A stretch of DNA of 64,000 nt from Escherichia coli (GCF_003790525.1 NZ_CP033635.1), one strand, 5' to 3'. Numbered from the stretch's first letter, positions 24,676-58,005 are shown. The notes: a model not told the origin generated them from the letters alone. A program made the numbers and translations.

Positions 24676-24709
24676 TATTACGGGCCGTCTGGCCCGTTTT
24701 TGTGTTGCT

Positions 24710-25009
24710 TTATTCTGCTTTATCAATAGGCGGGATAGCCGGAGGAGATTGAAGATCTGCTACCGAATTATTGCGCGCTTCCAGTTCACTGATGCGCTGC
24801 TCCAGTAACGCCAGTTTTTCACGAGTCCGTAACAGGACTTGCGTCTGAACGTCGAATTCTTCGCGGCTTACCAGATCGAGACGTGTCAGCTGCGCTTGTA
24901 GGGTTTGGCGGATTTTTTTCTCCACATCTTCCCCGAACTCCCTGATTCCTTTAGGCATTGATTCGTGAACCTGGCGAGCGATTTGCTCAATTTTTTTCGG
25001 GTCAATCAT
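24710..25009 (-). CDS. ubiK: Ubiquinone biosynthesis accessory factor UbiK
   Basis: [39 protein letters not shown]... (coiled coil); start chosen at the ATG at 25009 with a GGAA SD. Confidence 0.8.
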
Positions 25010-25382: not shown

Positions 25383-26036
25383 ATGAATCAGACGCTACTT
25401 TCCTCTTTTGGTACGCCTTTCGAACGTGTTGAAAATGCACTGGCTGCGCTGCGTGAAGGACGCGGTGTAATGGTGCTTGATGATGAAGACCGTGAAAACG
25501 AAGGCGATATGATCTTCCCGGCAGAAACCATGACCGTTGAGCAGATGGCGCTGACCATTCGCCACGGTAGCGGTATTGTTTGCCTGTGCATTACTGAAGA
25601 TCGCCGTAAACAACTCGATCTGCCAATGATGGTAGAAAATAACACCAGCGCCTATGGCACCGGTTTTACCGTGACCATTGAAGCGGCTGAAGGTGTGACT
25701 ACCGGTGTTTCTGCCGCTGACCGTATTACGACCGTTCGCGCAGCGATTGCCGATGACGCAAAACCTTCTGATCTGAATCGCCCGGGCCACGTTTTCCCAC
25801 TTCGCGCGCAGGCAGGTGGAGTACTGACGCGTGGCGGCCATACTGAAGCAACTATTGATCTAATGACGCTGGCAGGCTTTAAACCGGCTGGTGTGCTGTG
25901 TGAGCTGACTAATGACGATGGCACGATGGCGCGTGCACCAGAGTGCATTGAGTTTGCCAATAAACACAATATGGCGCTCGTGACTATTGAAGACCTGGTG
26001 GCATACCGTCAGGCACATGAGCGTAAAGCCAGCTGA
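25383..26036 (+). CDS. ribB: 3,4-dihydroxy-2-butanone 4-phosphate synthase
   Basis: 217-aa [45 protein letters not shown]... Confidence 0.95.
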
Positions 26037-26068
26037 AAACCGCTGCTTAATTTACTGCCTTAATCAAG

Positions 26069-26105
26069 AAACCGAAGTTGTAGCAGGCTTCGGTTTTTAT
26101 TTTTC
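26069..26105 (+). terminator. ribB rho-independent terminator
   Basis: gaaaccgaag-(loop)-cttcggttt followed by a T run. Confidence 0.6.
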
Positions 26106-26297
26106 CCTGCTATGCAAGATGTTAATTCCGCTTCTCTTTCTATGAGAAAATTTCATTAATATCAGGCATTCTTTTTCATTATGATCAAAATCATATAATT
26201 GTTCCGTTATTATGCGACCATATGAATATATCCGAAAAAGGATATGTGAAATTTATGCGCTAAATGTTTAGTATTGTTAAATATTAAGGGTAAAAGG

Positions 26298-26468
26298 ATG
26301 TTTATCGCCTGGTACTGGATTGTATTGATTGCTCTTGTTGTTGTGGGTTATTTCCTGCATTTGAAACGTTATTGTCGGGCGTTTCGCCAGGACAGAGACG
26401 CACTGCTTGAAGCGCGGAACAAATACTTAAACAGTACGAGAGAAGAGACAGCCGAAAAGGTAGAATAA
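26298..26468 (+). CDS. Small single-pass membrane protein (56 aa), function unknown
   Basis: ORF MFIAWYWIVLIALVVVGYFLHLKRYCRAFRQDRDALLEARNKYLNSTREETAEKVE with an AAGGG SD about 8 nt upstream. Confidence 0.4.
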   Translation: MFIAWYWIVLIALVVVGYFLHLKRYCRAFRQDRDALLEARNKYLNSTREETAEKVE

Positions 26469-26525
26469 GGCTTTAGTGAAGCTGGCAGAAGTTGTCCATG
26501 CGCTGGACAACTTCTGATGTTGCTT

Positions 26526-27299
26526 TTAACCAATTCCCGCCGTTTGTAGCAGCACTAAACTGAATCCCATCACTGACATTCCACATAGTACGCCATAGCT
26601 GGGGTTATTATTAGGGTCAATCTCTTTGGCGAGCGGCATTAATTCATCAACCGAGAGCGCTACCATAATTCCTGCAACCGCCGCCATGATTGCCGCCATG
26701 ACCACCGGGGAAATCATGCTACCGAGGATTAACCACGCCAGCACACCACCAAGAATTTCTGCCAGTCCAGAAATCCCCGCCCAAAGAATCGCGGTGCGTT
26801 TAGACCCCGTTGCCGCGTAAACCGGGCCTGCAACCGCCAGACCTTCAGGAATATTGTGTAACGCAACGGCCAGTGCGATGCCAAAGCCCAGCTCCAGGTT
26901 GCTGCTCGCCGTGACAAAGGTGGCAATCCCTTCCGGGAAGTTATGCAGACTGATGCCGAGAGTGAGCAGAATGGCTGTGCGCTTGATCGATTTTGGCAAC
27001 GGCTGCACCGATTTTTGCATTAAATCCTGCGGATGCGCATGTGGCAACATGCGGTCCAGGCCAAAATAGCCAAGCAGACCGAAGATAAACATTCCATAAC
27101 CCAACACAGGTGACATTCCTTCGGCGGCTAATGCGGCAGGAAGCATTTCCATTAATGAGATGAGCAACATGATCCCCGCCGCAAATCCTAGCGAAAACGC
27201 CAGTAAGCGGTTCGAGGGTTTTTGCCCGAGAACGCCGAGAAACGCGCCAATAAACGTGGCTGCCCCCGCCAGTATGGTCAGAATGAGAGGTACTGACAT
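26526..27299 (-). CDS. zupT: Zinc transporter, ZIP family
   Basis: 257-aa product starting [22 protein letters not shown]... (track ORF is 14 codons longer). Confidence 0.9.
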
Positions 27300-27414
27300 C
27301 GACAACTCCTTATAAATCTTCACCTTCAGGCAGATCGTCAAAATAACTGATGATCATCATCATTGTTATCCGGGTTCTTACTCCGCCGAACAAGCGTATT
27401 GTGAGGATATCAAA

Positions 27415-28230
27415 ATGACACCTTTAGTTAAGGATATCATCATGTCTTCAACACGTATGCCAGCATTGTTTTTAGGTCACGGTAGTCCGATGAACGTGCT
27501 GGAAGATAATTTGTATACCCGCAGCTGGCAGACGTTGGGGATGACATTGCCACGCCCGCAAGCAATAGTGGTGGTTTCGGCTCACTGGTTTACCCGTGGA
27601 ACAGGAGTGACCGCGATGGAGACGCCGCCCACGATTCATGACTTTGGTGGCTTCCCGCAGGCGCTGTACGATACGCATTATCCTGCTCCGGGTTCACCTG
27701 CGCTGGCACAGCATCTGGTTGAGCTGTTAGCGCCGGTCCCTGTGACGCTGGATAAAGAAGCCTGGGGCTTCGACCACGGCTCGTGGGGCGTACTGATTAA
27801 GATGTATCCTGACGCCGATATCCCGATGGTGCAGTTGAGTATCGACAGTAGCAAACCTGCCGCCTGGCATTTCGAAATGGGGCGCAAACTCGCGGCGCTG
27901 CGTGATGAAGGGATAATGTTGGTCGCCAGTGGCAACGTGGTGCATAACCTGCGTACAGTGAAGTGGCACGGTGATAGTTCACCGTATCCGTGGGCGACGT
28001 CGTTTAATGAGTATGTGAAAGCGAATCTGACGTGGCAAGGGCCGGTGGAACAACATCCTCTGGTGAATTATCTCGACCATGAAGGTGGCGCGTTATCGAA
28101 CCCAACGCCAGAGCACTATCTGCCGTTGTTGTATGTCTTAGGTGCGTGGGATGGGCAGGAGCCAATTACCATTCCGGTCGATGGTATAGAAATGGGCAGT
28201 TTAAGTATGCTGTCGGTGCAGATAGGTTAA
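27415..28230 (+). CDS. ygiD: Extradiol ring-cleavage dioxygenase (4,5-DOPA dioxygenase-like)
   Basis: 271-aa ORF ...LFLGHGSPMNVLEDN...; an alternative start at MSSTRMPAL (27442) is possible. Confidence 0.85.
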   Translation: MTPLVKDIIMSSTRMPALFLGHGSPMNVLEDNLYTRSWQTLGMTLPRPQAIVVVSAHWFTRGTGVTAMETPPTIHDFGGFPQALYDTHYPAPGSPALAQHLVELLAPVPVTLDKEAWGFDHGSWGVLIKMYPDADIPMVQLSIDSSKPAAWHFEMGRKLAALRDEGIMLVASGNVVHNLRTVKWHGDSSPYPWATSFNEYVKANLTWQGPVEQHPLVNYLDHEGGALSNPTPEHYLPLLYVLGAWDGQEPITIPVDGIEMGSLSMLSVQIG

Positions 28231-28237
28231 TAAAAGA

Positions 28238-28266
28238 ACCCGAAGCCAGAATGACTGGCTTCGGGT
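28238..28266. terminator. Bidirectional hairpin terminator between ygiD and dsbI
   Basis: acccgaagccag-aatgac-tggcttcgggt. Confidence 0.5.
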
Positions 28267-28275
28267 GTTGCTGAG

Positions 28276-28947
28276 TTAGCCTCTGATGATTTTAAGTGCC
28301 CATGCGCCACTCATAATGACCAGCAGCACCAGACACATACCAAAAGCCAGCATACAAGCCTGAGCCATATTCATAAAATGCCATGGTGGTAGCAGATACC
28401 AGCCTTCAGATTGCTGATACATTTCCACAAACCACTGTTGCGTGCTGCTCAGTGTGACGCCATCAGGAACGATTGGTGCGTCATAGCCACAATCCCCGGT
28501 AGGCTTGAACCAATTTGGTGCCCACTGTGCCAGCGGCAGGTTAAAGGGAAAAGTTGGATCGGTAGAGCAACCCTGTACGCCAAACAGTGAATCGGGATCC
28601 GGATTATGTACTGCATGGTGGATATCGTTCAGTTTGAGCGAAAACTTCAGTCCCAAAATGCTGCCGTAAAATGCCATCACGCAGCCAATTAGCTTTAGGA
28701 TGATGTTCTTTGGGTTGATCGCTGCAACCAATCCTCCAATAACCATCACAAACATGGCGTAGCGAATGTATACACATTGCTCACAGGGTGCCATGTAGAG
28801 ATAGATCTGGAAGAAAGAGTGCGCCAGGATAATTAACGCGCCCATCGCAACGGCCATTAACAACCACAACAAGCGTTGCTCCTGCCATCTGACCAGTGTG
28901 TCAACTGGTGATGTGCGAAGATCTTTCCACATTCCCTTAATACCCAT
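28276..28947 (-). CDS. dsbI: DsbB-like membrane disulfide oxidoreductase
   Basis: 223-aa polytopic ORF with paired cysteines (CEQC; C...C in the periplasmic loop); last gene of the assT operon. Confidence 0.85.
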
Positions 28948-28961
28948 AGCCTGTTTCCCTG

Positions 28962-29630
28962 TTATTTGCTTGCTAACTCACGGATAAGGTCTGCCATCGC
29001 GTCGATGGATTTGATGCTCTTGGTGTAGATCAAGTACTTACCATTAACGACATAGGCTGGAACCCCCTGGATTTTGGCGACATCATAAGAGGCTTTCCAT
29101 TTTTCCAGTGTTTCTTGAACCGCTGGTTCTTTCAGTGCCGCTTCAAAATCCGCCTGACTCATACCTGCGGCATCCAGACCGGTTTTGATAAAAGCAGCCG
29201 GATCTTTACCGTCAGACCAGCGTTCTTTTTTGTCGTGATAAGCCACGTAGTAGGCAAACTTGGCTTTCTTAAACTGAGAGTTAGCATCAAATAAGGAAAT
29301 GCCTGCTGCTTTATCTTTATTGATCAAGACCGCAAAGACTTCGCTTGCTTGTTTGCCGTATTCACCTTTGGTTTCCAGATGGAACGGCGTGAAAGCAACG
29401 ATATCTTTCACTTTTTCCGATACCGGACCGGTAACCGCTTTGTCGTACTTGTAACAGAACGGGCAGGCGTAGCTGAATACCTTAATCAGCGTTTTGTCTG
29501 CATTCGGAATAGGTTTTTCCAGAACCATGTAATCCGTGCCTTCGGTAAATGCAGAAGCGGTAAATGAAACAGCCAAAGCTGCGGTAAGCAGTATGCTTTT
29601 AAATAGTGATGAGATCCCTAATTTCGACAT
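28962..29630 (-). CDS. dsbL: DsbA-like periplasmic thiol:disulfide oxidoreductase
   Basis: 222-aa ORF with a signal peptide and CPFC active site ([10 protein letters not shown]). Confidence 0.85.
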
Positions 29631-29647
29631 TTTTATTCCCTTCTTAA

Positions 29648-31444
29648 TTATTTGAACATCTGTTGTGGACGGACTAACAATGCACGATAGTGAGTCTGAT
29701 TGGGTTTATCTGACAGCACGTCGATTTCCACTTTCACTTCTTTGGTTTTGTAATCGATTTCGTTCAACTTACCGACGGTTGGCTGCCCGACATCGAACAA
29801 ATGAATAGAACCACCGAAGCCAAACATGGTGTTACGGTCGGCTTGATATTCAATGATGGAGGTGATTGGGCTATAGAAATCGTAGCCACGTTCTTTACCG
29901 TATTCCCACACTTGCTGAACGGTGCCTTTCTTCTCATCAATCTTATATTCCACAAAGCGGGAATATTTCATGGTTGGTAAGGCAGGTTGTTCCAGATGAC
30001 GACCATCGCCATTATCAAAAATGGTGAGCGTTCCTTTGCTGGAAATCCAGGCGGTATGCTGGGTGTAGGTAAAGTCGAAGTCTGAGTTTTCGCACAGGCC
30101 ATTTTCGTTACAGGTAATTGGCTTACCGTTAGCATCAACCGGTTTCAGCAGCTTGCTGGCCAGCGGTTTTTCCCAACCTTTAGAGGGTGCAAGGATCCAT
30201 TTCACTTGCTTATCACGACCAATCTTCACAACACCCTGGTGACGAGAAGAGAGAATAATTGAGTCATCTTTTGCGTCATAAGCGATGGAATTAACGTGCG
30301 CCCAGTTACGGCCTGGCCCTACACCCAGAGCGTCGCCGAACGGTGTATCTGGTTCCAGTTTTGCCTGTTGTCCTGCATGGGCAAGGTCAACGTTAACGCA
30401 AACTGCACCTGCATCCAGCGCGCCGAGCAGTGCATCGCGTTTCGGATCGAGGATCTTCGTCAGATCCCATACATCTACAACGCGACCAGATTTATCGACT
30501 TCGAGGATATGGTCACGAATGGTGGTGACGTGTACGCCGTCATCGCGACGATAGTTACTCTTACCTACGCGCAACAGTACCGTGCCATTTGGCGTCTCAA
30601 TGGATTCATGAGTAGCGTCAGCAAATCCGCGCGGTAGTTTGTGATCTTCGAGCACCTGCCCCATCATGTCGAACTCGTACCAGTGCTGACCTTGTACAGC
30701 GGTAAAGGTGCCGCGTGGCGTTTCGCGGATACCCATCAGATAACCACGTTTGTTAATGTTGCGGTCACGACCATCGTAGAAGGTGTTTTGATCCAACCAC
30801 CAGCGGTATTCGCCTTCCGTATCGACGATAAAGGTGAATGGCGCGATATCAAAAGGGAGTGCGCCAGTTGCCGGACCCGCATCAAGGATACCGGCATTTT
30901 TATCTTTCTCACCATGCCAGTGGAGATCGGAACCTTGGGCGGTAAAGGTGTGGGTATTAACCAGATAGAGGCGATCTTCAAAACCCGGTGCGACTTTAAT
31001 AACTTTGGTCTGTTGTAAATCGGAGATAGAGCGGTTATCCATGTAATTATTGACGATGGCCGAAGTGTGCACCACATAATCATCTTTCATGACCTTGCCG
31101 TTTTCTTTCCACTCAACGGTCACTTTGTTAGCAAATTTCTGATAAAGACCAAAAATCGGTACACCATCGTAAGTTTTTAGTGATTCCTGACCCACGGGAT
31201 AGCTGATTTCTACGCCTTTTTCGCCCTTCCCATGGACGGTAACTCTGACGTCAGAAATAACATGGCTATCTAAGTCAACCAAAGCGGTCAGTGGTGCATT
31301 GCCGTAGGGATCGACAATGACCGCACCCAGTTGCCCGGCAGGCGGCGCTGGTTTAAAACCCGCAGCCATCACCCCCGATGCTGACAAACCCAGGGTTATC
31401 GCCACAGTTCCGGCTACGAGTGTTTTTCTATATTTATCAAACAT
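29648..31444 (-). CDS. assT: Periplasmic arylsulfate sulfotransferase
   Basis: 598-aa ORF with a signal peptide; recognised as AssT by family resemblance and by the dsbL-dsbI partners. Confidence 0.88.
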   Translation of the reverse strand: MFDKYRKTLVAGTVAITLGLSASGVMAAGFKPAPPAGQLGAVIVDPYGNAPLTALVDLDSHVISDVRVTVHGKGEKGVEISYPVGQESLKTYDGVPIFGLYQKFANKVTVEWKENGKVMKDDYVVHTSAIVNNYMDNRSISDLQQTKVIKVAPGFEDRLYLVNTHTFTAQGSDLHWHGEKDKNAGILDAGPATGALPFDIAPFTFIVDTEGEYRWWLDQNTFYDGRDRNINKRGYLMGIRETPRGTFTAVQGQHWYEFDMMGQVLEDHKLPRGFADATHESIETPNGTVLLRVGKSNYRRDDGVHVTTIRDHILEVDKSGRVVDVWDLTKILDPKRDALLGALDAGAVCVNVDLAHAGQQAKLEPDTPFGDALGVGPGRNWAHVNSIAYDAKDDSIILSSRHQGVVKIGRDKQVKWILAPSKGWEKPLASKLLKPVDANGKPITCNENGLCENSDFDFTYTQHTAWISSKGTLTIFDNGDGRHLEQPALPTMKYSRFVEYKIDEKKGTVQQVWEYGKERGYDFYSPITSIIEYQADRNTMFGFGGSIHLFDVGQPTVGKLNEIDYKTKEVKVEIDVLSDKPNQTHYRALLVRPQQMFK

Positions 31445-31894
31445 GGATATATCTCCTTATATAACGCAAATATATAATAATGATGAATATCGACTGTTGA
31501 GAGGGTGCTAATAAATTCGTTACGTGAATATGAATATTAATTCAATAAAGAGTGAGAATGCTTTTGTGTTTCTTTTAAATATGTTGTTATTCGGTGAAAC
31601 AAATATTTATGTTTAATGGATAGTAGGGGGGCAATATATCAATCACAATGTTCAATACTGTGTAGTGTGATCCCTGCAACATTGTTTTTTAATTATTAAA
31701 TTTAAATCTGGTGAGATAAAAGTAAAGTATTTAAATAATATCAAATAGTTATGTTGTGATGTATTCACTTACTTTAATTACAATATCGCTTGCATATGAC
31801 GATTTAACATTAAATTGAGTATTAATGTTAAATAAAGGTTGGATATGTATGTGTTTATATATTGATGGGAATTATGAATGGTGGATTATAAGAG
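31445..31894 (-). promoter_or_regulatory. AT-rich upstream/promoter region of the assT operon
   Basis: About 450 bp of strongly AT-rich non-coding DNA with no ORF of 60 codons or more; typical of a horizontally acquired, nucleoid-protein-silenced promoter. Confidence 0.4.
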
Positions 31895-31917
31895 ATTGCC
31901 CCGCTTATCGGGGCAAT
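31895..31917 (-). terminator. Hairpin downstream of ygiC (possible terminator, weak U tract)
   Basis: attgccccg-cttat-cggggcaat perfect stem. Confidence 0.4.
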
Positions 31918-31928
31918 ATTAAGCTGTA

Positions 31929-33089
31929 TTACTCAACAAAAATATGCGGATAAAACCGAGACATATCCTGGGTGATCAATGCACGGTCTTCACGAATGCC
32001 AATTCCGGCAGGTTGATCGTTCACCAGCCAGCTACCAATCAGCATATAGCTGTCGCCGAATTTCGGTAACGGGTGGAATTGCTGAACAATCATCCCTTCT
32101 TCGCCATACGGACCTTCCGCTGCTTCAATGGTTTTGCCGTTCTCAATGATCGACACGTTTGCGCCTTCACGGGAGAAGATCGGTTTAACCACATATTTTT
32201 CCATTTGCGGATGATCATCTTCCGCAAAATAAGCGGGCAGCAGGTTCGGGTGATTCGGGAACATCTCCCACAGTAGCGGTAGAAGCGCTTTGTTGGAGAT
32301 AATGCTCTTCCACGCCGGTTCCAGCCAGCGTACGCCTGCATCCTCCAGCTTGGTGGAGAACATCTCACGCAACATAAATTCCCACGGATACAGCTTGAAC
32401 AGGTTGGAAATCACCTGATCCTGTAAATCCGTGAACTGACCTTTTTCACCTAACCCGATATCGTCGATGTAGAGGAACTCGGTAGCGATTTCAGCTTCCG
32501 TCGCGCAGTCCTGCAAATACTGAATGGTTCCGCGATCTTCCACCGTGTCGCGACAGCAGGTGAGATGCAGCAACTGGAAGCCATACTGTTCACGCAGCTC
32601 AACGAAGCGATCGATCAGCTTTTCTTGCAAACTGTTAAACTGGTCGCTGCCCTCCGGCAAGTTACCGGCGTTAAGCTGATCTTCCAGCCAGATCCACTGA
32701 AAGAACGCCGCCTCGTATAGTGACGTTGGCGTATCGGCGTTATTTTCCAGAAGCTTAGGTTCGCCAGTGCCATCCCACGCCAGATCAAGACGCGAATAAA
32801 GCGATGGCTGGTGCGTCAGCCATGACTGGCGCACAAAACTCCAGGTGTGTTTTGGTATGCGGAATTTGGTCATCAGCTCATCGCTGGCGATCACTTTTTC
32901 CACCACTTTCAGGCACATCTGGTGCAGTTCGGCGGTGACTTCTTCCAGCTTTTCAACCTGAGCGAGGGTCAACTTGTAGTAAGCATCTTCACACCAGTAC
33001 GGCTCGCCGTACATGGTGTGAAAATTGAAACCGTATTCGTGGGCTTTTTCGCGCCAGTCCGGGCGCTCGGTAATACTGACTCTTTCCAT
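31929..33089 (-). CDS. ygiC: Glutathionylspermidine-synthase-like ATP-grasp protein
   Basis: 386-aa [35 protein letters not shown]... Confidence 0.9.
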
Positions 33090-33094
33090 CGGTA

Positions 33095-33766
33095 TCAGCC
33101 ACCCATTGAACGAGAAGAGGTGCCGGTTGCGCTACGCTGCATAGTGCTTTGTTTGGCAACAGATTCACCAAAACCGCCACGGGTAACGGTAGTGGTGGTC
33201 GCCGGTTTTGGTGCCATTGCCGTCTTCGGTACGGTCATGGTGCGGCCTGGCTGGGCTGCGCCATAGTTTTTACCCGTCGCGTCGGTATATTTACCGTAAG
33301 CCGGGCTGGCCGGGTTTTTCGAGGAGAACAGCGGCTGCTGTGCAAATCCCGCGCCGCCGCCCATCAGACGCCCCATCATGTAACCGGCCATCAGCGGCAT
33401 CCAGAAACTTCCGCTGGATTGCTGGGCCTGCGCCTGGTTTTCTGGTGCCATACCAGCCTGGGCTGGTGCCTGCTGGCACTGACCTTCACCAAATTCAGCA
33501 ACACAGTCTTCACGGGTGGCGTATTTCGGCGCAGTACGTTCGGCTTCTTTCAGCGCATTGTTGTACGCGGTGGTACATTCGGCGCTTTTGCCTGGGTTTG
33601 CAGCTGAACAGTCGTCAGCATTTTGATAGAGAGACACTGTTTCATCACTCTTTTCACAGCCAGCCAGCATAAAAACAGTGGCAACCGCGAGAGCGACTGG
33701 TGTCAGATGGCGTGCGCTCCAGTTTTTGCGGAACGATGCGTGGCGTATGGATTTTGTCCGTTTCAT
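33095..33766 (-). CDS. ygiB: DUF1190 lipoprotein-like protein
   Basis: Product starting [37 protein letters not shown]...; part of the tolC-ygiBC operon. Confidence 0.85.
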
Positions 33767-33913
33767 TTTTGTCTTCCGGGACCAGTGGTAAATACCCATC
33801 AGAATAGAGGATGGCTGGTCGAAATTGAAGCGAGAAGGGGGAAGAATGCGGCAGATAACCCGTATCTTTACGTTGCCTTACGTTCAGACGGGGCCGAAGC
33901 CCCGTCGTCGTCA

Positions 33914-35395
33914 TCAGTTACGGAAAGGGTTATGACCGTTACTGGTGGTAGTGCGTGCGGATGTTTGCTGAACGACGGGTGCCGGGCTATCAGGCGCATA
34001 ACCATCAGCAATAGCATTCTGTTCCGGCGTTTGCGGGGCAACGTTTTCCGGATTAGTGGAAACCGGTTTGCTCAGCGCATTGTTCAGTGCCAGAAGATCC
34101 TGCTCGTTCAACGTACCCAGAGCTGATTTAATATTCAACTGGTTAATCAGGTAGTTATAACGCGCATTTGCCAGCTCTTGCTTGGCGTTGTACAGCGTGG
34201 TGGTCGCATCCAACACATCAACAATGGTACGCGTACCGACCGAGTAACCCGCTTCCATCGCGTCTAATGAGCTTTGAGCGGAAACTACGGCTTGTTTGTA
34301 GGCGTTAATGCTACTGATAGAAGCATTAATGTTGTTGAAGGAGGAACGTACGGTTTGTACGACGCTACGATGCGCGCTTTCCAGTTGCTCGCTGGCACCA
34401 ACAAAGTTGTACTGGGCCTGTTTCACCTGCGAGTTAACCATTCCGCCCTGATAAATCGGCAGCGAGAAGCTCAGGCCAACTTTGTTCTGGCCCATATTGC
34501 TATCGTCATACTGGGTACCAGCGGCACCACGGGTTTTCGAACCGCTATAAGAGGTGTCAGAAATCCCGGTAGAAGCCGTTAAATCCAGAGTCGGTAAGTG
34601 ACCATCCTGCGCCTGGCGAATTTGCTCGCGCGCCAGGTCCTGGCTCAAGCGCGCCTGTAACAACGACAGGTTGCGTTTTTCGGCTTCTTTCAGCAGCGTG
34701 TTAACCGGCTGTGGTTTGTCGGTTTTAAAGTTTTCGACATTCAGCGCCGCCAGTTCCGGATAGTAGTTACCGGTGATCTGGCGCAGCTGCTCTACCGCGT
34801 TATCAAGGTTATTACGTGCGGTCACTTCGTTCGCCAGCACGGTATCGTACTGTGCGCGGGCGTTCTGCACGTCAGTGATCGCTACCAGGCCCACGTTAAA
34901 ACGTTGGGTGGTTTGATCTAATTGACGGTAGATCGCTTCTTTTTGCGCCTGTGTATAGGAAAGAACGTCAATAGCATTCAACACGTTGAAATAAGCGGTC
35001 GCGGTGTTGAGGATCAAAGTTTGTTGATCGGTCTGATACGTGACGTCCTGAATCCCAGCTGCTTTTTCCTGCAGCGTTAACGCACGCCATTTCGACATAT
35101 CAAAAATGGATTGAGTTAACTGCAGGGACGCACTGGTCGCGTTAGAGTTGATGCCGTTCGCGTCGCGGTAGCCGTTGCTATAGGTGTAATCTGCACCTAA
35201 ACCTAGCTGTGGCAGTAATGGACTGCGCGCTTCATTAATTTTTTCAAAGGCAGCATCACGATCGGCGGCAGACTTACGCAATTCCGGGTTACTAAGGCGT
35301 GCTTGCTGATAAACTTGCATCAGGTTCTCGGCCTGGCTCAACGAACTGAAACCAGAAAGGCTCAGGCCGATAAGAATGGGGAGCAATTTCTTCAT
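33914..35395 (-). CDS. tolC: Outer-membrane efflux channel
   Basis: 493-aa product MKKLLPILIGLSLSGFSSLSQAENLMQVYQQARLSNPELRKS...; start at the ATG at 35395. Confidence 0.95.
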   Translation of the reverse strand: MKKLLPILIGLSLSGFSSLSQAENLMQVYQQARLSNPELRKSAADRDAAFEKINEARSPLLPQLGLGADYTYSNGYRDANGINSNATSASLQLTQSIFDMSKWRALTLQEKAAGIQDVTYQTDQQTLILNTATAYFNVLNAIDVLSYTQAQKEAIYRQLDQTTQRFNVGLVAITDVQNARAQYDTVLANEVTARNNLDNAVEQLRQITGNYYPELAALNVENFKTDKPQPVNTLLKEAEKRNLSLLQARLSQDLAREQIRQAQDGHLPTLDLTASTGISDTSYSGSKTRGAAGTQYDDSNMGQNKVGLSFSLPIYQGGMVNSQVKQAQYNFVGASEQLESAHRSVVQTVRSSFNNINASISSINAYKQAVVSAQSSLDAMEAGYSVGTRTIVDVLDATTTLYNAKQELANARYNYLINQLNIKSALGTLNEQDLLALNNALSKPVSTNPENVAPQTPEQNAIADGYAPDSPAPVVQQTSARTTTSNGHNPFRN

Positions 35396-38110: not shown

Positions 38111-40006
<1,896 letters not shown>

Positions 40007-40024
40007 TAATCCTCCCGCCAGAAG

Positions 40025-40058
40025 AATAAAACATAGCCCGGTATACAAGTGTATACCG
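40025..40058 (+). terminator. parE rho-independent terminator
   Basis: agcccggtatac-aagt-gtataccgggct followed by TTTTTT. Confidence 0.75.
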
Positions 40059-40069
40059 GGCTTTTTTGA

Positions 40070-42211
40070 TCAAAATTCCATTTTCACCGTGAATTGCACT
40101 TCACGAGGATCGCCAATCTGGTTGCCCAGATTATTTGTGGCGATGGAAGAGGTGTAATACGTTTTATCAAACAGGTTTTTGACGTTTAATTGCAGTGTGA
40201 CCGGATACTGCAATTTCATTTTGTATGCGGCGAAGGCATCGGCAACGAAATAGCCTGGCAGATAATAGTCAGCCCCATTGGTTGCCGAACGACGGCTTAC
40301 GCCATGTCCACCACCGCCAAACGTCAGTGTGTTATTGCCAGGCATGTTATGAATGTCATAAGTCAGGAATAGCGAACCGGTATGACGAGGAACATTCGGC
40401 AATGGTTTCCCTGCATAATCAGGATCCTCCAGAACCTTAGCATCGGTATAGCCGTAGCTGGCAATGATATTAATGTTTTCAGTTAATGCTCCCGCAAGGT
40501 CGACTTCTACCCCTCTTGAACGAACACGGCCTGCCGTTTTGGCAATGGTTTCATCACCAACACTTTCGGTATACAACACATTACGTTTATGGATATCAAA
40601 CAGCGCAATATCTGCGGTGATACCATCGAATAGCTCGAATTTTGCCCCGACTTCGTAAGCATTAGATGATTCCGGTGGAAGATCGCCAATGTAGCTGGCA
40701 ATTGACGACTGCGGCATAAATGTTTGCGAATAATTGGCAAATAAGGATACCGATGGCGTCAGTTTGTAGACTAACCCCAGTTTGGGAGTCCATTGTTCAT
40801 CGCGGCTGTCAGTATTGACATTAAAAGGACGGCCTTTACCCGCATACTGCGTGTAATACTGATAGCGGATCCCGGCGACGGCAATCCAGTTATCGGTCAG
40901 ATAGAGTGCGTCCTGTGCATACGCTGAGTAGCTCTCCTGTTTGATCGTCTGATCACTGTCCGACGCCGAAACCGTTGTACATTTGCTGGTATTACCATAA
41001 ACAGGGTTGTAGATATTGAAATCTTTAGCTTTTTTACAGCGAATCATATCTGTACGCAGAAGATCATAATATTCATATGACACCCCACCCAGAATCTCAT
41101 TATAGAATCCGGCAATATCAACATTCCCTTGCAGATCCGCACGAGTAGCATGCATACGCTGGGTAGATCCCTGAGTTGCATCAACACGCCGTGTCAGTGT
41201 TCCTGTCGTTGCATCATACGCGGTAACACGCGCCTGATTATCGCTGTATTTATCCTGGCTGTAGCTGTAATCAAAGCGCGCTGTCCACTGGCTATTGAGA
41301 TGATATTCTGCGTTGAGTTGCGCCAGATCGGACTTTCCATCTGTAATATTAAACGGTTCGTCAAAACGTATTTTTCGATCAACGTTTACGGGCTGTTTCG
41401 TCGTAAGGTCGAAAATCGTTCCACGATCGAACGGAGTTTTATAGTCCCGATGGGAATAGAGCATAGTTACTGTTGCATTATCACCAAACCAGGTGAGTGA
41501 CGGGGCAATAAATGTACTGCGCTCTTTACCGAAGTTTCGCCAGTAATCTTCATCCTGCACTTCCCCGGTAAGGCGATACGCCAGCTGAGTGCCTTCAATG
41601 GGACCTGTGATATCAAGTTGCCCAGTGCCGCCACCAAAACTGGAGGAGGTGGCTGAAACCGAACCATGGAATGTTTTTTCCGGGCGCTTGGTCACGACGT
41701 TAATCAGTCCACCAGGATCGAGAATGCCATACAGCGTGGAGGCCGGACCTTTTAGCACTTCCACACGTTCTGTGGCGGCGTTGAAACTGCGAGGAAGTAC
41801 AGTTCGCAGGCCGTTGGTCATGATGGAGCCATCCCGGTTAGCACCAAACCCACGACGTACAAAGGCGTCCTGAGTTCCGCCTAATGTATTGGTCTGTACC
41901 ACGTTACTGACGTTATAAAGCGCTTCATCCAGCGTCGTCGCATTCTGATTTTCCAGAACCTGATCGCTAACAGTATTGACCACCTGCGGGATATCCAGCA
42001 TCGGCATATCGGTTAATGTCGCCGTGGAAGTGCTCAGAGGTTGATAACCATCGGTTGCCTCAGTTGCGGTATTTGCATCTGCTGTAACAGTGATTGTTTC
42101 GCCATCTTTGGTCGTTACAGAGTCTGTTGCATGAATCATCGGTGCCGCAAAAAGCAGTGAAAAGAGCGCCCGACCTTTGAGTCCTGAGAATGAAGGTGTG
42201 AACATAGCCAT
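40070..42211 (-). CDS. TonB-dependent outer-membrane siderophore receptor (accessory)
   Basis: 713-aa ORF with a signal peptide, TonB box ETITVTA, plug and beta-barrel, and a C-terminal aromatic residue (MEF). Confidence 0.85.
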   Translation of the reverse strand: MAMFTPSFSGLKGRALFSLLFAAPMIHATDSVTTKDGETITVTADANTATEATDGYQPLSTSTATLTDMPMLDIPQVVNTVSDQVLENQNATTLDEALYNVSNVVQTNTLGGTQDAFVRRGFGANRDGSIMTNGLRTVLPRSFNAATERVEVLKGPASTLYGILDPGGLINVVTKRPEKTFHGSVSATSSSFGGGTGQLDITGPIEGTQLAYRLTGEVQDEDYWRNFGKERSTFIAPSLTWFGDNATVTMLYSHRDYKTPFDRGTIFDLTTKQPVNVDRKIRFDEPFNITDGKSDLAQLNAEYHLNSQWTARFDYSYSQDKYSDNQARVTAYDATTGTLTRRVDATQGSTQRMHATRADLQGNVDIAGFYNEILGGVSYEYYDLLRTDMIRCKKAKDFNIYNPVYGNTSKCTTVSASDSDQTIKQESYSAYAQDALYLTDNWIAVAGIRYQYYTQYAGKGRPFNVNTDSRDEQWTPKLGLVYKLTPSVSLFANYSQTFMPQSSIASYIGDLPPESSNAYEVGAKFELFDGITADIALFDIHKRNVLYTESVGDETIAKTAGRVRSRGVEVDLAGALTENINIIASYGYTDAKVLEDPDYAGKPLPNVPRHTGSLFLTYDIHNMPGNNTLTFGGGGHGVSRRSATNGADYYLPGYFVADAFAAYKMKLQYPVTLQLNVKNLFDKTYYTSSIATNNLGNQIGDPREVQFTVKMEF

Positions 42212-42311
42212 TTAGTCTGTTATCCCAAAAACTCGCGGATTGTCGCGAGTGAAAATTGTTTCTTATTGCTCACTAAGCACTATCCGTTTGTTATTTCGCC
42301 ATCGGATATGT

Positions 42312-42330
42312 AATTGAGAATCATTCAATC
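42312..42330. promoter_or_regulatory. Candidate Fur box in the divergent receptor/ABC promoter region
   Basis: aattGAGAATCATTCaatc partially matches the GATAATGATAATCATTATC consensus (about 12 of 19). Confidence 0.25.
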
Positions 42331-42584
42331 ACGCAGTAATGTAGTAGTAAATGAGAAATAACAAAAAATTGCTACATGTGTTTTTATGAAAAGTTTATAC
42401 AATTTGATTGCTTTTAATTTATTGATATTTAATGGTTTTGTTTTTATGTGCAAAAATATTTTACCTGTTATTTACCTTGTTTTTGTGTGGCTTTTAACTG
42501 CTTGACTACTACATTTTGTGGCGTCAAACTCTCAAAGGAGAATGAGTTTTATTTTTGTTTGTCTTTGATTAAGTTGGCGTACAC

Positions 42585-43394
42585 GTGGCACATAACGCAA
42601 AAGGGCAGGGGCTGATCCTCGACAATGTTTCTGCCGGGTATCACAAGAAAATCATTGTTGATGGTGTTTCTTTCTCCGTTCCCACAGAAAAAATGACCGT
42701 TCTGGTTGGGGCAAACGGCTGTGGAAAGTCGACGCTGCTCAGCACCATTGCTCGTATCTTGCAACCCATGGGCGGTTCGATATTGCTGGATGGTAAAGCG
42801 ATTCACGAGCAACCAACGAAAGCGTTATCCCGTAGACTTGGGATCTTGCCGCAGTCGCCATTATTGCCGGAGGGCTTAACCGTTTATGAACTGGTGTCGC
42901 GTGGGCGTTTTCCCTGGCAGAATTTCATTCGTCAATGGAGCGACGCCGATGAGCTGGCGGTAGAAGAGGCCCTGAAATTAACGGGTACGCAGGAGTTTGC
43001 ACATTTACCTGTTGAAAAACTCTCTGGTGGGCAGCGCCAGCGTTGCTGGATTGCGATGGTGTTGGCGCAAAAGACGCCTTATATCCTGCTGGATGAACCC
43101 ACAACCTGGCTTGATTTACGTTATCAGGTTGAAATTCTTGAGTTATTACATGATTTAACGCGTCATCACGGGCGTACAGTCGTCGTGGTGTTGCATGATC
43201 TGAATTTTGCCGTCAATTATGGCGATACGTTGATATTTTTACGCCAGGGGAAAGTGGTGCGTGTGTTGAATGAGGGGGAGCATTGCACGCCTGAGCTGGT
43301 AAAAGCGGTCTTTGACGTTGATGTTCACGCATCAATAAATCCTCTGACGGGAAAGCCGTTCTTCATGCCGTTTCGTGGTGTAGAAAAAGTATGA
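42585..43394 (+). CDS. ABC transporter ATP-binding protein (FecE/FepC-like)
   Basis: Walker A GANGCGKST, signature LSGGQRQR, Walker B ILLDEP; GTG start with a weak SD. Confidence 0.85.
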   Translation: MAHNAKGQGLILDNVSAGYHKKIIVDGVSFSVPTEKMTVLVGANGCGKSTLLSTIARILQPMGGSILLDGKAIHEQPTKALSRRLGILPQSPLLPEGLTVYELVSRGRFPWQNFIRQWSDADELAVEEALKLTGTQEFAHLPVEKLSGGQRQRCWIAMVLAQKTPYILLDEPTTWLDLRYQVEILELLHDLTRHHGRTVVVVLHDLNFAVNYGDTLIFLRQGKVVRVLNEGEHCTPELVKAVFDVDVHASINPLTGKPFFMPFRGVEKV

Positions 43395-44374
43395 TGCGCA
43401 CAGGGCTGGTTACTGTAATTTTCCTCGCCTTACTGCTGGTGGGATGCGTGGTATATCCAGGGATTGGTGCCCGATTTATTGCACCACAAACGGTGTTGCA
43501 GGCATTTCTTCATTTTGATCCGCAAAACTTCGATCACAACGTAATTGTAAGACTCCGTTTGCCGCGTTTAGCGGCAGCATTGCTTACCGGTGCTTCTCTT
43601 GGAGTTGCTGGTGCTTTGTTGCAGGCTGTCATTCGTAACCCATTGGGGGAGCCACATATTTTAGGCTTAAATGCCGGAGCCGCTCTTGCTGTCGTTGCTG
43701 CCAGTGCGCTTGGGCTGGCCTTTCCGGTTGGACGCCCACTGCTGGCATCTACGGGCGGCGCGTTATTGTTCCTGTTGATATTGCTGCTTTCCTCCGCAGG
43801 GCGTTCAGGGTTAACGCCAATGAAAGTTACTTTATGCGGCGTGGCGCTATCGGCGTTCGTGTCCTCAATAACGGCTGCAATCCTGATTCTTGACGAACAA
43901 ACACTGCTGGCGATGCGGACATGGCTAGCAGGTGATTTAGCGGGGCAGGATTGGGCGACGCTGGGTACGTCCGCCTGGTTTTCTCTGGGGGGATTTGTGT
44001 TAGCCCTTTACCTTGCACCCTCCCTTAACATGTTGGCACTGGGCGATCGCATGGCGCAGGGGCTGGGCGTCTCTGTATTCCGCACGCGAACATTCACCCT
44101 GCTTGCGATCGCGTTGCTCTGTGGCGCAGCCGTATCGATTGCTGGCCCCATTGGTTTTGTCGGCCTGCTAGTACCGCAGATTGTCCGGCGTCTGGTATCA
44201 GCGGATCTGCGCGTTCTGCTCCCTCTTTCAGCTTGTGTCGGCGCACTTTTGTTATTACTGGCAGATATTATTGCCCGTACGCTTTTCACACCCCATGAGT
44301 TAGCGACCGGTGTCATGACGGCGTTAGTTGGTGCGCCTGTTTTTGTCATTATGGCGACGAGGATGTTCAAATGA
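43391..44374 (+). CDS. ABC transporter permease, FecCD family
   Basis: 327-aa polytopic ORF; start overlaps the ATPase stop. Confidence 0.85.
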   Translation: MMRTGLVTVIFLALLLVGCVVYPGIGARFIAPQTVLQAFLHFDPQNFDHNVIVRLRLPRLAAALLTGASLGVAGALLQAVIRNPLGEPHILGLNAGAALAVVAASALGLAFPVGRPLLASTGGALLFLLILLLSSAGRSGLTPMKVTLCGVALSAFVSSITAAILILDEQTLLAMRTWLAGDLAGQDWATLGTSAWFSLGGFVLALYLAPSLNMLALGDRMAQGLGVSVFRTRTFTLLAIALLCGAAVSIAGPIGFVGLLVPQIVRRLVSADLRVLLPLSACVGALLLLLADIIARTLFTPHELATGVMTALVGAPVFVIMATRMFK

Positions 44375-45420
44375 GTCGGATAATGAACGTCGGGCTACGC
44401 CCACTACGTGTTGGTAAGTTTTCGACACTGGTACGCCCTAAAAATCTGCTGTTGCTTGGTGGGCTGTTCCTGCTTGCGGTTGGAATACTGATATTCGGTC
44501 TGATGCAGGGTTCTTTCTCTGTTCCGGCATCGGAAGTAGGACGAGCGTTGTTTGCTCCAGAAAACGTAAGCACAGACGCACGTTATATTGTGCAGGATAT
44601 TCGCTTGCCGAGAGTCATCATGGCATTGCTATGCGGGGCCATGTTAGGTATGGCAGGGGCCGCAATGCAATCCATTGCACGTAACGGCCTTGCCGATCCT
44701 GGTTTAATCGGCGTCAAAGAAGGATGTAGCGTGGCTGTGCTGTGGCTGATTTTCCAGTTTCCAATGCTGGGAATGTTCTGGCGTCCAGTGGCTGGTCTTG
44801 CTGGTGGCCTGTTGGTGGCTTTAATCGTGATTTTTTGTGCGCGCGATATTTCCCGCCCGCGATTTGTTCTGATTGGTATTGGTGTTTCCTGGTTTTTCGC
44901 CGCCGGTATCGGTGTATTTATGACCACTGCAGATGTTCGAGATGTACAAACTGCATTGATGTGGTTATCGGGAAGCCTGCATGCAGCTAACTGGATGTTA
45001 GTCGCTATTTCAGCCTGTTGGATGTTGCCAGCCGCTCTTTTATTGCTGTTCACCGCCAGGACGGCGGATATCGCTCTGCTTGGTCATCAGGTTGCAACCG
45101 GGTTAGGGGTGAATAGTTCTCGTCTGGCGTTGTTACGTGTCGCTGCACCCATAATCCTGACAGCCGTCTGCGTTTCGTGTGTTGGTAACATCGGTTTTGT
45201 CGGATTGATAGCACCCCATATATCACGTTTTATTCTACGTGGCGGGCAGACGACATTACTGCTGGGGAGCGCGGTATCGGGGGCGTTGTTAGTTATTCTG
45301 GCGGATAGCATTGGTCGTTTGGCTTTTTTGCCTTTGCAACTGCCTGCCGGAATCATTATCTCACTGATTGGTGGACCATTTTTTTTGCTACTGCTCTGGC
45401 AGCGCAGGAACAGTTTTTAA
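44371..45420 (+). CDS. ABC transporter permease, FecCD family
   Basis: 349-aa polytopic ORF; overlaps the upstream permease by 4 nt. Confidence 0.85.
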   Translation: MSRIMNVGLRPLRVGKFSTLVRPKNLLLLGGLFLLAVGILIFGLMQGSFSVPASEVGRALFAPENVSTDARYIVQDIRLPRVIMALLCGAMLGMAGAAMQSIARNGLADPGLIGVKEGCSVAVLWLIFQFPMLGMFWRPVAGLAGGLLVALIVIFCARDISRPRFVLIGIGVSWFFAAGIGVFMTTADVRDVQTALMWLSGSLHAANWMLVAISACWMLPAALLLLFTARTADIALLGHQVATGLGVNSSRLALLRVAAPIILTAVCVSCVGNIGFVGLIAPHISRFILRGGQTTLLLGSAVSGALLVILADSIGRLAFLPLQLPAGIIISLIGGPFFLLLLWQRRNSF

Positions 45421-45430
45421 CGGGAGTTAT

Positions 45431-46378
45431 ATGCGTTTATTTTTTTCTCTGCTGATACTGTTGTCATTTTTTTCCCGTGCAACAGAACCTGTTCAGGTAT
45501 TTACTGATGATTTAGGGCGCAAAGTCACTGTTCCTGCTCATCCAAAGAGAATTGTCTCTTTACACGATCTTGATATCACTATTCCTCTGATTGAGCTCGG
45601 TGTACCTCCTGTCGCCAGCCACGGGCGAACTCGGCCTGACGGTAGCCATTTCATTCGATCTGGCGCGTTATTGACAGGTGTCGACTTTGATAATTCATCG
45701 ATCGCCTTTATTGGTACCGCTGATATTGATATTGAAGCGATTGTGGCGGCAAAGCCTGACCTGATCATCACAGAACCGACCCGTAATACGCCCATTGAAC
45801 AACTTGAAAAAATTGCGCCCACGGTGAGCATTGATCATCTCAAAGGGGGCGCGCCAGAAATCTATCGCAAGCTGGCAGAACTTACAGGAACGCAGTCGCA
45901 GCTGGCGATACTTGAACGCCGCTATCAGGCACAAATCAATGCGCTGAAGGCGACGCTGGACAGCCAAAAAATAACGGTATCGGTGATTCAGGCAAACCAG
46001 GGAAAAATTAATGTGATGCATAGCTATCATTCGCTGGGGCGGGTATTACGCGATGCTGGTTTTCGTTTTCCGCCGCTGATTGAGAGCATTCCTGAAGGTG
46101 GGCGAATGGATGTGAGCGCGGAGCGTTTACCTGAACTGGATGCCGATTTTGTTTTTGCAACCTGGCGCGGTGACACCGGTGGTAAACCTCAGGATGAGCT
46201 GGCAGCAATGGAAAAAGTCATGCCGGGATGGTGTCAGTTTCTGACTGCCTGTCGTTCCGGGCGTTATGTGCTGATTTCTCGTGAAGAGGCGATTTCTAAC
46301 TCCTTTGCATCTCTGGGGCTGATGGCTGCGCAGATACAATCACAAATTGCAGGGCGACCTCTACCGGAGGATAAATGA
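45431..46378 (+). CDS. Periplasmic substrate-binding protein (FecB/FepB-like, cluster A)
   Basis: Product starting MRLFFSLLILLSFFSRA (signal peptide) at the ATG at 45431, with a GGGAG SD. Confidence 0.8.
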   Translation: MRLFFSLLILLSFFSRATEPVQVFTDDLGRKVTVPAHPKRIVSLHDLDITIPLIELGVPPVASHGRTRPDGSHFIRSGALLTGVDFDNSSIAFIGTADIDIEAIVAAKPDLIITEPTRNTPIEQLEKIAPTVSIDHLKGGAPEIYRKLAELTGTQSQLAILERRYQAQINALKATLDSQKITVSVIQANQGKINVMHSYHSLGRVLRDAGFRFPPLIESIPEGGRMDVSAERLPELDADFVFATWRGDTGGKPQDELAAMEKVMPGWCQFLTACRSGRYVLISREEAISNSFASLGLMAAQIQSQIAGRPLPEDK

Positions 46379-47262
46379 TCCAGAAAGATAAAGCGCGGGT
46401 TGATATTTTTGGTGAGCGTTTTCGCACTCGCGCGAGTCAGTTAACGCCTGGGTTAAGAGTTGTCGCCAGCTACATTAATGAGCATCGTGAAGTGGTACTC
46501 GAGCAAACGGCGATGGAAATTGCGGCCACGTTGAACACTTCCGATGCCACAGTTATCAGGGCTATACAGGCCCTGGGGTTTGCCGGGCTGCGTGATCTGA
46601 AACGCACTCTGGAACAGTGGCTTGGTCCAGCCCTTAGTTCCAGCGAAAAGATGTCTACGACGGTGAGTAACTTGACGAGCGATGTTAACACCGCAATCGA
46701 CTTTGTTCTTGAAGGGCATTTGTATACCTGTAATGTCCTGTCAGAGCCTGAAAACCGCCACGCGCTTGCGCAAGCTGTAGCGTTGTTGGTGCAGGCACGG
46801 CAAGTCGCTATTTTTGGCATTGGCGCTTCGGGTATCCTGGCGGACTATACCGCACGACTATTCAACCGCATAGGTTTGCCTGCCACGGCACTAAACCGTA
46901 CGGGTATTGGCCTTGCCGAGCAACTGATCGCGCTTCAACGTGGCGATGTTCTGATCATGATGGCGCAAAAATCTGCGCACCGGGAAGGGCTGACAACGCT
47001 TCGTGAGGCGAGGCGGCTGGGGATCCCTGTTATTTTGCTGACAAACGCGCTGGATTCACGTTTTAGCAAAGACGCCAGTATCGTGATTCATGTTCCGCGC
47101 GGGGATGAAAAAGGGAAAACGCCGCTACATGGTACGGTATTGTTGTGTCTGGAAATGATTGTCTGGTCGGTAGCTTCCGCAGTGCCGCAGCGTGCGGTTA
47201 AAACCATTAAGCGAATTAACGATTTCCATCGAGGACTGAAAACGGGAAGAAAGAATGGCTAA
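46375..47262 (+). CDS. RpiR/MurR-family transcriptional regulator (HTH plus SIS domain)
   Basis: 295-aa ORF with an N-terminal HTH (TAMEIAATLNTSDATVIRAIQALGFAGLRDLK) and a SIS phosphosugar-binding fold (IFGIGASGILA); overlaps the binding-protein stop. Confidence 0.8.
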   Translation: MIQKDKARVDIFGERFRTRASQLTPGLRVVASYINEHREVVLEQTAMEIAATLNTSDATVIRAIQALGFAGLRDLKRTLEQWLGPALSSSEKMSTTVSNLTSDVNTAIDFVLEGHLYTCNVLSEPENRHALAQAVALLVQARQVAIFGIGASGILADYTARLFNRIGLPATALNRTGIGLAEQLIALQRGDVLIMMAQKSAHREGLTTLREARRLGIPVILLTNALDSRFSKDASIVIHVPRGDEKGKTPLHGTVLLCLEMIVWSVASAVPQRAVKTIKRINDFHRGLKTGRKNG

Positions 47263-47306
47263 TCTGGGCTGAGACCGGTAGCAACACCGGCCTCTTTTCA
47301 GGAATG

Positions 47307-48233: not shown

Positions 48234-48342
48234 TTTTTAACCTTAAGGTGAGACGTTTGCCGACTATAGTACGTCACAGAGCGGTACGGTGAAATTAGCA
48301 AAATGTGCAAAGTCTTTTGCGAATTTAGCAAAAGTCTTACCC

Positions 48343-57997: not shown

Positions 57998-58005
57998 TGG
58001 ACCAA

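Follow-up and report, generated by a model that had tools for sequence, protein, structure and literature searches.

The best-described relative of the locus examined here is the tricistronic operon of uropathogenic Escherichia coli (UPEC) CFT073, composed of astA (also called assT), dsbL, and dsbI, in which DsbL and DsbI oxidize the arylsulfate sulfotransferase AssT (PMC7810732, PMC13426309, and PMC6067686, where the work is credited to Grimshaw et al. 2008 and Malojcic et al. 2014). The primary descriptions of the CFT073 system are those of Grimshaw et al. 2008 (J Mol Biol) and of Malojcic et al. 2008 and 2014, and its structures are PDB 3ELQ, 3ETS, 3ETT, and 3C7M. AssT is described as a homodimer that combines a beta-sandwich with a six-bladed propeller and acts by a ping-pong mechanism via sulfo-His436 (PMC13426309). 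The module serves as the model for sulfuryl transfer that is independent of 3'-phosphoadenosine-5'-phosphosulfate (PAPS) and as a reporter in DsbA-inhibitor screens, and it exemplifies an oxidative-folding pair that is dedicated to, and encoded alongside, a single client. We analyzed a 64,000-nucleotide stretch of E. coli DNA (GCF_003790525.1, NZ_CP033635.1), called the window below, in which assT, dsbL, and dsbI are located between ygiD and ygiC. This locus is almost certainly an intact assT-dsbL-dsbI operon and the same system as that characterized in CFT073. The structures, enzymology, and redox partners of this system are already known in detail, as is its regulation in Salmonella; the copy in the window shows no departure from the CFT073 prototype and is ordinary for its lineage, and it is the comparative and population-level description that is mildly new. 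The enzymology and the dependence of AssT on DsbL and DsbI are taken from the literature and are applied to the window through near-identity.

The three genes and their products

All three genes are intact, co-directional open reading frames (ORFs) on the minus strand. The first, assT, occupies positions 29648 to 31444 and encodes a 598-amino-acid precursor with a mature protein of 571 residues. It is followed after 17 bp by dsbL at 28962 to 29630 (222 amino acids, with an N-terminal signal sequence) and, after a further 14 bp, by dsbI at 28276 to 28947 (223 amino acids), a spacing typical of an operon. An earlier reading of the sequence, here called the original prediction, had proposed a three-gene minus-strand operon between ygiD and ygiC, and the ORFs were found where it had placed them. 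The interval that it gave, 28231 to 31444, spans all three genes but stops short of the end of the block that differs from K-12, which reaches 31928. Over 5.7 kb the window is 100% identical to strain SC516, isolated from chicken liver. The likeness to CFT073 extends to the genes, their order and strand, the site between ygiC and ygiD, the spacers, and the terminator, with 98.5% identity in the DNA of the module and 99.4% in its regulatory region, such that the two copies differ by allelic substitutions only. No feature of the sequence contradicts the identification of the operon.

The AssT protein aligned end to end with the CFT073 enzyme. Residues 28 to 598 matched residues 1 to 571 of PDB 3ELQ (E = 0), with 568 of the 571 mature residues identical (99.5%), and the comparison with the CFT073 genomic protein gave three differences in 598 residues (K67R, D220N, and D229N). 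Two Pfam domains were detected, the Ig-like beta-sandwich N-domain PF17425 at residues 42 to 127 (E = 7e-28) and the ASST beta-propeller PF05935 at residues 146 to 587 (E = 1e-135), the latter covering positions 2 to 374 of the 374 in the model. The catalytic and sulfuryl-binding residues listed for the enzyme, among them His436 as the sulfo-histidine intermediate (PMC13426309), are all in place (His436, His252, His356, Asn358, Arg374, and Thr501, in mature-protein numbering). Cys418 and Cys424, the single essential disulfide pair, are both present within PITCNENGLCENS. As read from the sequence, the N terminus, MFDKYRKTLVAGTVAITLGLSASGVMA followed by AGF, is an export signal, and the mature chain in the PDB entry begins at residue 28. 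AssT gave zero NCBIfam matches because NCBIfam has no hidden Markov model for AssT; Pfam and the PDB settle its identity. The periplasmic arylsulfate sulfotransferase that had been predicted here is thus nearly identical to the uropathogenic AssT, and at 99.5% identity to an assayed enzyme it would be expected to transfer sulfuryl groups between phenolic compounds without PAPS.

The two proteins encoded downstream are equally close to their CFT073 counterparts. DsbL was identical to PDB 3C7M at 194 of 195 positions (E = 8e-127), the single mismatch falling in the mature protein, and it differs from the CFT073 protein at 2 of 222 residues (T12S and A129V). It carries the thioredoxin-fold Pfam domain DSBA, PF01323 (E = 2e-11), and its active site is CPFC at precursor residues 56 to 59, with Cys56 and Cys59 as the cysteines. 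In DsbI, no residue differs between the window and CFT073, and the two share one RefSeq protein. The protein matched the NCBIfam DsbI equivalog NF003304 over residues 3 to 222 at 417.7 bits, which exceeds the cutoff of 212, and the Pfam DsbB family PF02600 with an E value of 4e-23. Its Cys55/Cys58 and Cys127/Cys153 align to the Cys41/44 and Cys104/130 catalytic pairs of DsbB, and a crude Kyte-Doolittle scan gave hydrophobic stretches at approximately residues 23 to 55, 57 to 104, and 190 to 223. The allelic substitutions that separate AssT and DsbL from the CFT073 proteins affect none of the catalytic or redox residues that were checked. Both the DsbA-like oxidoreductase with a CPFC active site and the DsbB-like membrane partner of the original prediction were borne out by these matches. 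The DsbI of the E. coli and Salmonella type, a DsbB paralogue, differs from the like-named protein of Campylobacter and Helicobacter.

DsbL and DsbI share with K-12 DsbA and DsbB a general plan, a thioredoxin-fold CXXC oxidase with a four-cysteine membrane partner, but the K-12 proteins are distant paralogues. DsbL matched DsbA with an E value of only about 1e-12, and its 77 bits for the DsbA equivalog of NCBIfam are far under the cutoff of 279, which sets it apart from the housekeeping DsbA; DsbI, with 83 bits, did not reach the DsbB cutoff of 157. The RefSeq name of the DsbL protein is DsbA/DsbL. The active site is CPFC in DsbL and CPHC in DsbA, and DsbL and DsbI, unlike the K-12 pair, are encoded together with a single client.

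In K-12 MG1655, ygiC (3180421 to 3181581, plus strand) and ygiD (3181619 to 3182434, minus strand) are adjacent and convergent, as had been predicted, and are separated by a 37-bp spacer that carries a hairpin unrelated to the module terminator. MG1655 has none of the three genes and no trace of the module, in line with the prediction that K-12 lacks them. Homology between the window and K-12 ends exactly at both stop codons, which defines a variable block of 3,698 bp (28231 to 31928) in the window against 37 bp in K-12. In addition to the three genes, the block includes a 484-bp regulatory region and the ygiC terminator, both beyond position 31444. Neither end of the module has any sequence in common with the K-12 spacer, in which no deletion scar is visible. 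The coding part of the block has a GC content of 42 to 53%, unremarkable for E. coli.

More distant versions of the system were compared in the same way. Gene order is the same in Salmonella enterica and Citrobacter, where protein identities to the window were 85 to 88% for AssT, 86 to 88% for DsbL, and 83 to 88% for DsbI; the Salmonella DsbL structure is PDB 3L9U. In Campylobacter jejuni, the gene order is dsbA2-dsbB-astA-dsbA1. AssT homologues also adjoin DsbL and DsbI homologues in human-associated Campylobacter metagenome-assembled genomes from oral and gut sources (loci L027 to L056), but there the gene order and orientation are different and two AssT paralogues are present. Identities to the E. 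coli proteins in those genomes reached 65% for DsbL and were 52 to 57% for DsbI and 39 to 47% for full-length AssT. That DsbL and DsbI are more similar to their E. coli counterparts than AssT is may point to separate histories of the enzyme and its folding pair. The Dsb system of C. jejuni is discussed in PMC8708908.

Genomic position, distribution, and origin

A scan of species-representative genomes for AssT returned 52 loci, and their synteny was compared by tblastn. E. coli, E. whittamii (L026), Escherichia sp. MOD1-EC7003 (L007), and Pseudocitrobacter all have the module in the ygiC-ygiD interval, and in E. albertii (L008), on a short contig, it is flanked by ygiC and ygiD fragments. In seven Citrobacter species, Salmonella enterica arizonae, and Intestinirhabdus, it is found instead between yqiD and ribB, in the same orientation and approximately 2 kb away, and there most of the upstream sequence cannot be aligned with that of the window. 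In a comparison over loci L009 to L017, L022, L025, L026, and L007, the two slots differ in that assT-dsbL-dsbI and ygiD-zupT-yqiD have exchanged places as blocks. In K-12, the run ygiC-ygiD-zupT-yqiD is collinear with that of Citrobacter and Salmonella, and the module is at neither site. A tblastn search for a yqiD remnant or a scar that would link the E. coli and Citrobacter sites detected none; in Pseudocitrobacter, a divergent yqiD-like ORF (41 to 56% identity) accompanies assT. Budvicia, Leminorella, Limnobaculum, and Edwardsiella carry the three-gene module in unrelated contexts. The order assT-dsbL-dsbI was kept at all 21 of the Enterobacterales loci with an intact three-gene module, and such lasting linkage across genomic backgrounds gives independent support for functional coupling of the three genes.

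Within E. coli, the block was present in 1,508 of 5,426 complete genomes (28%), at one chromosomal site and with a median of one copy, the match covering at least 80% of the block in every carrier. The remaining complete genomes have a K-12-type junction. Carriers include CFT073, 536, NU14, S88, ST131, and ATCC 25922 and also the enteropathogenic (EPEC) strain O127:H6, the enteroaggregative (EAEC) strain 042, and SCU-109, isolated from the rectum of a healthy student, while O157:H7, O145, O111:H8, enterotoxigenic E. coli, and laboratory strains are noncarriers. We take CFT073, 536, S88, and ST131 to belong to phylogroup B2 and 042 to phylogroup D. A literature search on the phylogroup distribution of assT and dsbL found nothing relevant. 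With healthy-carriage, EPEC, and EAEC strains among its carriers, the module marks lineages and not the extraintestinal pathogenic E. coli (ExPEC) pathotype. The earlier description of an ExPEC/Salmonella-type module is therefore apt as to homology, which is near-identity, but not as to specificity for ExPEC, with the module in 28% of the genomes and in other Escherichia too. A mobile element or genomic island was considered and rejected, as the block has no direct or inverted repeats at its boundaries, no integrase, no tRNA, and no mobility genes. Plasmid carriage was rejected as well; the plasmid collection gave only two matches, both to 4.9-Mb records that are mislabelled chromosomes.

The regulatory region upstream of assT is dimorphic among the E. 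coli carriers. Its identity to the copy in the window is 95% or higher in 1,246 genomes and approximately 78% in 262, with no intermediates. The coding DNA next to it is 94 to 98% identical between the two allele types, and the proteins differ by 2 to 6 residues. The minor regulatory allele has 88% identity to its E. whittamii counterpart but only 76% to the allele of the window. The coding regions are under purifying selection, the dsbL DNA being 93.9% identical between two E. coli alleles with 4 of 222 residues changed.

On the origin of this distribution, we consider it probable that the module is ancestral at the ygiC-ygiD site in Escherichia and was lost by K-12-type E. coli, and is not an islet acquired by ExPEC. 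The site is common to E. coli, E. whittamii, MOD1-EC7003, and Pseudocitrobacter and is consistent with the gene fragments in E. albertii; with four Escherichia species sharing one site, a loss in K-12-type lineages is likelier than a gain in ExPEC. Between the window and MOD1-EC7003, a 12-kb region forms one collinear block with 91.6% identity. Divergence of the module between species is about the same as that of its flanks, somewhat higher for assT and dsbL in MOD1-EC7003 and E. albertii. The boundaries lack repeats, an integrase, and a tRNA, the module is all-or-none at its single chromosomal site within E. coli, and the carriers include strains that we presume to be of phylogroups B2 and D. 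Against an ancestral position, the K-12 spacer contains no module-end sequence, and no deletion scar is visible. K-12 is moreover collinear at ygiC-ygiD with Citrobacter and Salmonella, such that the empty site could be the older one, and the AssT scan of species representatives recovered no E. fergusonii.

The main alternative, which we regard as possible but rather unlikely, is that some E. coli gained the module as a fitness or virulence islet by horizontal transfer, through recombination in the flanking core genes, and that K-12 has the original arrangement. The empty ygiC-ygiD arrangement that K-12 has in common with Citrobacter and Salmonella fits such a gain, as does the description of DsbL and DsbI as lacking from commensal strains and enteric pathotypes (PMC6067686). 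The 3' end of ygiD carries polymorphisms that track with the presence or absence of the module, and the proximity of one E. coli regulatory allele to that of E. whittamii implies some exchange or a very old polymorphism. A gain is harder to reconcile with four Escherichia species that share both insertion site and orientation, with a module that has no mobility signatures and never occurs on real plasmids, and with a coding GC content that does not stand out in E. coli.

If ancestry with loss is correct, the module would be an old resident of the tolC-ribB region of Enterobacteriaceae whose slot shifted from yqiD-ribB to ygiC-ygiD in Escherichia and Pseudocitrobacter, and the "UPEC-specific extra Dsb system" would be an ancestral trait that was cleanly lost in the A, B1, and E lineages. 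To a fuller scenario, in which the slot change and the loss in K-12 are joined by a regulatory dimorphism that reflects either a trans-species polymorphism or a recombinational promoter swap, we assign an even chance. For work on Dsb systems and on E. coli populations, the useful elements are the count of 28%, the one site, the other slot elsewhere, and the dimorphic regulatory region; the identity of the system is unchanged by them.

One further genome of the scan stood apart. Locus L006, from SCPM-O-B-8794, the GTDB representative of E. coli, is 90 to 95% identical to the window from ygiB to zupT, similar to E. whittamii, and K-12, CFT073, and SCU-109 are 96 to 99% identical to the window over the same region. 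L006 may belong to a cryptic Escherichia clade.

Expression signals and the proposed folding pathway

The 45-bp spacer between dsbI and ygiD (28231 to 28275), which both stop codons face, contains a single hairpin, as had been anticipated. The terminator scan placed this hairpin at 28238 to 28266 on the minus strand, with a 12-bp stem and a 5-nucleotide loop followed by UUCUUUUAUUA, and its fold energy is -23.5 kcal/mol (z = -7.4 against shuffled sequences). The hairpin folds on both strands, but the U-tail is present on the minus strand only, which makes it primarily the terminator of assT-dsbL-dsbI. The dsbI genes of other Escherichia, of Citrobacter, and of Salmonella arizonae are each followed by a CCGAAGCC...GGCTTCGG hairpin that is orthologous to this one. 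A hairpin 3' of ribB, at approximately 26040 to 26090 (AAAAACCGAAGCC...CTTCGGTTT; also AAAAACCGAAGCC...CTTCGGTTTCTT), is similar to the hairpins that terminate dsbI in E. coli, Citrobacter, and Salmonella arizonae (AAACCGAAGCCAG...GGCTTCGGTTT), and Citrobacter has one such hairpin between dsbI and ribB. This likeness could be a trace of the former position of the module or could be due to chance, the match being suggestive but too short to prove homology.

At the other end of the module, the upstream regulatory region of assT (31445 to 31928, minus strand) comprises 484 bp with a GC content of approximately 30 to 37% and has no counterpart in K-12. It includes the terminator hairpin of ygiC at 31895 to 31917 (minus strand), which keeps transcription of ygiC apart from the regulatory sequence of assT and has a 9-bp stem, a 5-nucleotide loop, and a fold energy of -15.4 kcal/mol (z = -3.4); in MOD1-EC7003 and E. 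albertii, the stem is retained by way of differing sequences. An alignment of seven Escherichia copies showed a variable AT-rich background with a few conserved islands. One island comprises the approximately 75 bp ahead of the assT ATG and includes the Shine-Dalgarno sequence AAGGAG (31453 to 31458, minus strand), which lies 8 nucleotides 5' of the ATG and is invariant in the seven sequences; the approximately 20 bp nearest this ribosome-binding site is kept in Salmonella and Citrobacter as well. A second island, of approximately 85 bp (31606 to 31690, minus strand), is kept across the Escherichia copies while its surroundings diverge, and portions of it reappear about as far from assT in some Citrobacter (L016 and L011) and in Pseudocitrobacter (L009). 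Within it is a candidate sigma-70 promoter on the minus strand, TTGTGA (31643 to 31648) and TACTAT (31620 to 31625) separated by a 17-nucleotide spacer, approximately 180 nucleotides 5' of the assT ATG, and the conservation of the island suggests that this may be the assT promoter. A repeat search found a perfect 12-bp inverted repeat at 31802 to 31833, ATTTAACATTAA and TTAATGTTAAAT separated by 8 nucleotides. Its arm at 31822 to 31833 is the TTATTTAACATTAA block, invariant in the seven Escherichia sequences, and the repeat is a possible binding site for a regulator.

In Salmonella Typhi, the assT-dsbL-dsbI cluster is repressed by H-NS and activated by LeuO, as reported in PMC4264507, which cites Gallego-Hernandez et al. 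2012. By analogy, the 484-bp AT-rich region would fit silencing by H-NS and its antagonism by LeuO in the strain of the window, and this control could possibly differ between the two regulatory alleles. A scan of positions 26000 to 34000 against Rfam (E <= 1) assigned neither the module nor the sequence upstream of it to a known RNA family; its only four matches, to snoRNA and STnc240 models, were far under the gathering scores and are put down to chance. Small ORFs of 20 to 42 amino acids in the 484-bp region were also considered. None is YqiD-like or shows a sign of conservation, and they were set aside as chance ORFs in AT-rich DNA.

Taken with the CFT073 work, these features suggest the following pathway. 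The three genes would be transcribed as a single minus-strand unit that starts in the 484-bp AT-rich region and ends at the hairpin at 28238 to 28266. AssT would be exported to the periplasm through its Sec-type signal peptide (residues 1 to 27), where DsbL, as a periplasmic CPFC oxidase, would introduce the sole disulfide, Cys418-Cys424, that AssT needs for activity. DsbI, in the inner membrane, would re-oxidize DsbL and pass the electrons on to quinones, a role that is predicted from its identity to CFT073 DsbI and from the literature. The oxidized AssT would then catalyze a PAPS-free ping-pong reaction via sulfo-His436, in which the sulfuryl group of a phenolic sulfate ester is passed on to a different phenol.

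Several points weigh against this picture or narrow it. The candidate promoter hexamers match only 8 of 12 consensus positions, and a promoter scan of the minus strand upstream of assT, with a threshold of 9 of 12, found none. The chromosomal AssT gene of CFT073 is reported not to be expressed under laboratory assay conditions, and AssT is reported to be dispensable for colonization of the mouse bladder, although upregulated in the urine of infected mice (PMC7810732). DsbA and DsbB are also able to fold AssT (PMC7810732), and the DsbL/DsbI pair is therefore dedicated but not indispensable. The original prediction that DsbL and DsbI oxidize AssT accordingly agrees with the literature (PMC7810732, PMC13426309, and PMC6067686) except in any implication of exclusiveness. 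That DsbL and DsbI are mainly a second general oxidative-folding pathway, serving several envelope or virulence proteins with AssT as one client, is quite improbable, for while the immotility of a CFT073 dsbA dsbL double mutant (PMC7810732) indicates that the DsbA and DsbL systems overlap in capacity, the pair is reported to be specific for AssT (PMC7810732 and PMC13426309), the three genes are strictly linked in more than 20 species and in varied genomic contexts, and, as a weaker point, no Enterobacterales locus had dsbL-dsbI without an adjacent assT among loci that were themselves found by an AssT search.

Flanking genes and other differences from K-12

The genes on either side of the module are convergent and lie outside it. 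On the left, ygiD (27415 to 28230, plus strand) encodes a 4,5-DOPA extradiol dioxygenase that matched the NCBIfam equivalog NF007914 with 533 bits against a cutoff of 233, and the RefSeq annotation of SC516 is concordant. On the right, ygiC (31929 to 33089, minus strand) encodes, according to RefSeq annotations, a protein of the glutathionylspermidine-synthase family. It is annotated as a peptide--spermidine ligase in MG1655, and the protein, WP_000442860.1, is the same in SC516, CFT073, and one K-12-type strain.

The window differs from K-12 at several other places. A 684-bp block at 941 to 1624, between rpoD and mug, is not in K-12; its product is annotated in SC516 as a member of the NADAR family. 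The ygiL-yqiGHI fimbrial operon of K-12 and an IS2 element (3185071 to 3191707, 6.6 kb) are missing between ubiK and glgS, where 72 bp is left at 24707 to 24778. Also missing are K-12 ygiZ, a 592-bp block, at 48338 to 48342 between qseC and mdaB, and the mqsR-mqsA toxin-antitoxin pair (927 bp) at 51430 to 51434 between ygiS and ygiV, where the junction is almost seamless. A 7.3-kb block at 40003 to 47306, between ygiN and parE, is not in K-12 and encodes a MurR/RpiR regulator, an iron-siderophore ATP-binding cassette transporter, and a TonB-dependent receptor; one FecCD permease in it is annotated as frameshifted in SC516. This block may correspond to the ExPEC "fit" iron-uptake locus, which it resembles. 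The last part of the window, 57999 to 64000, past ftsP, differs from K-12, which has ygiQ there, and contains genes for a tripartite ATP-independent periplasmic (TRAP) transporter and three dehydrogenase or oxidoreductase genes, with the small permease annotated in SC516 as having an internal stop.

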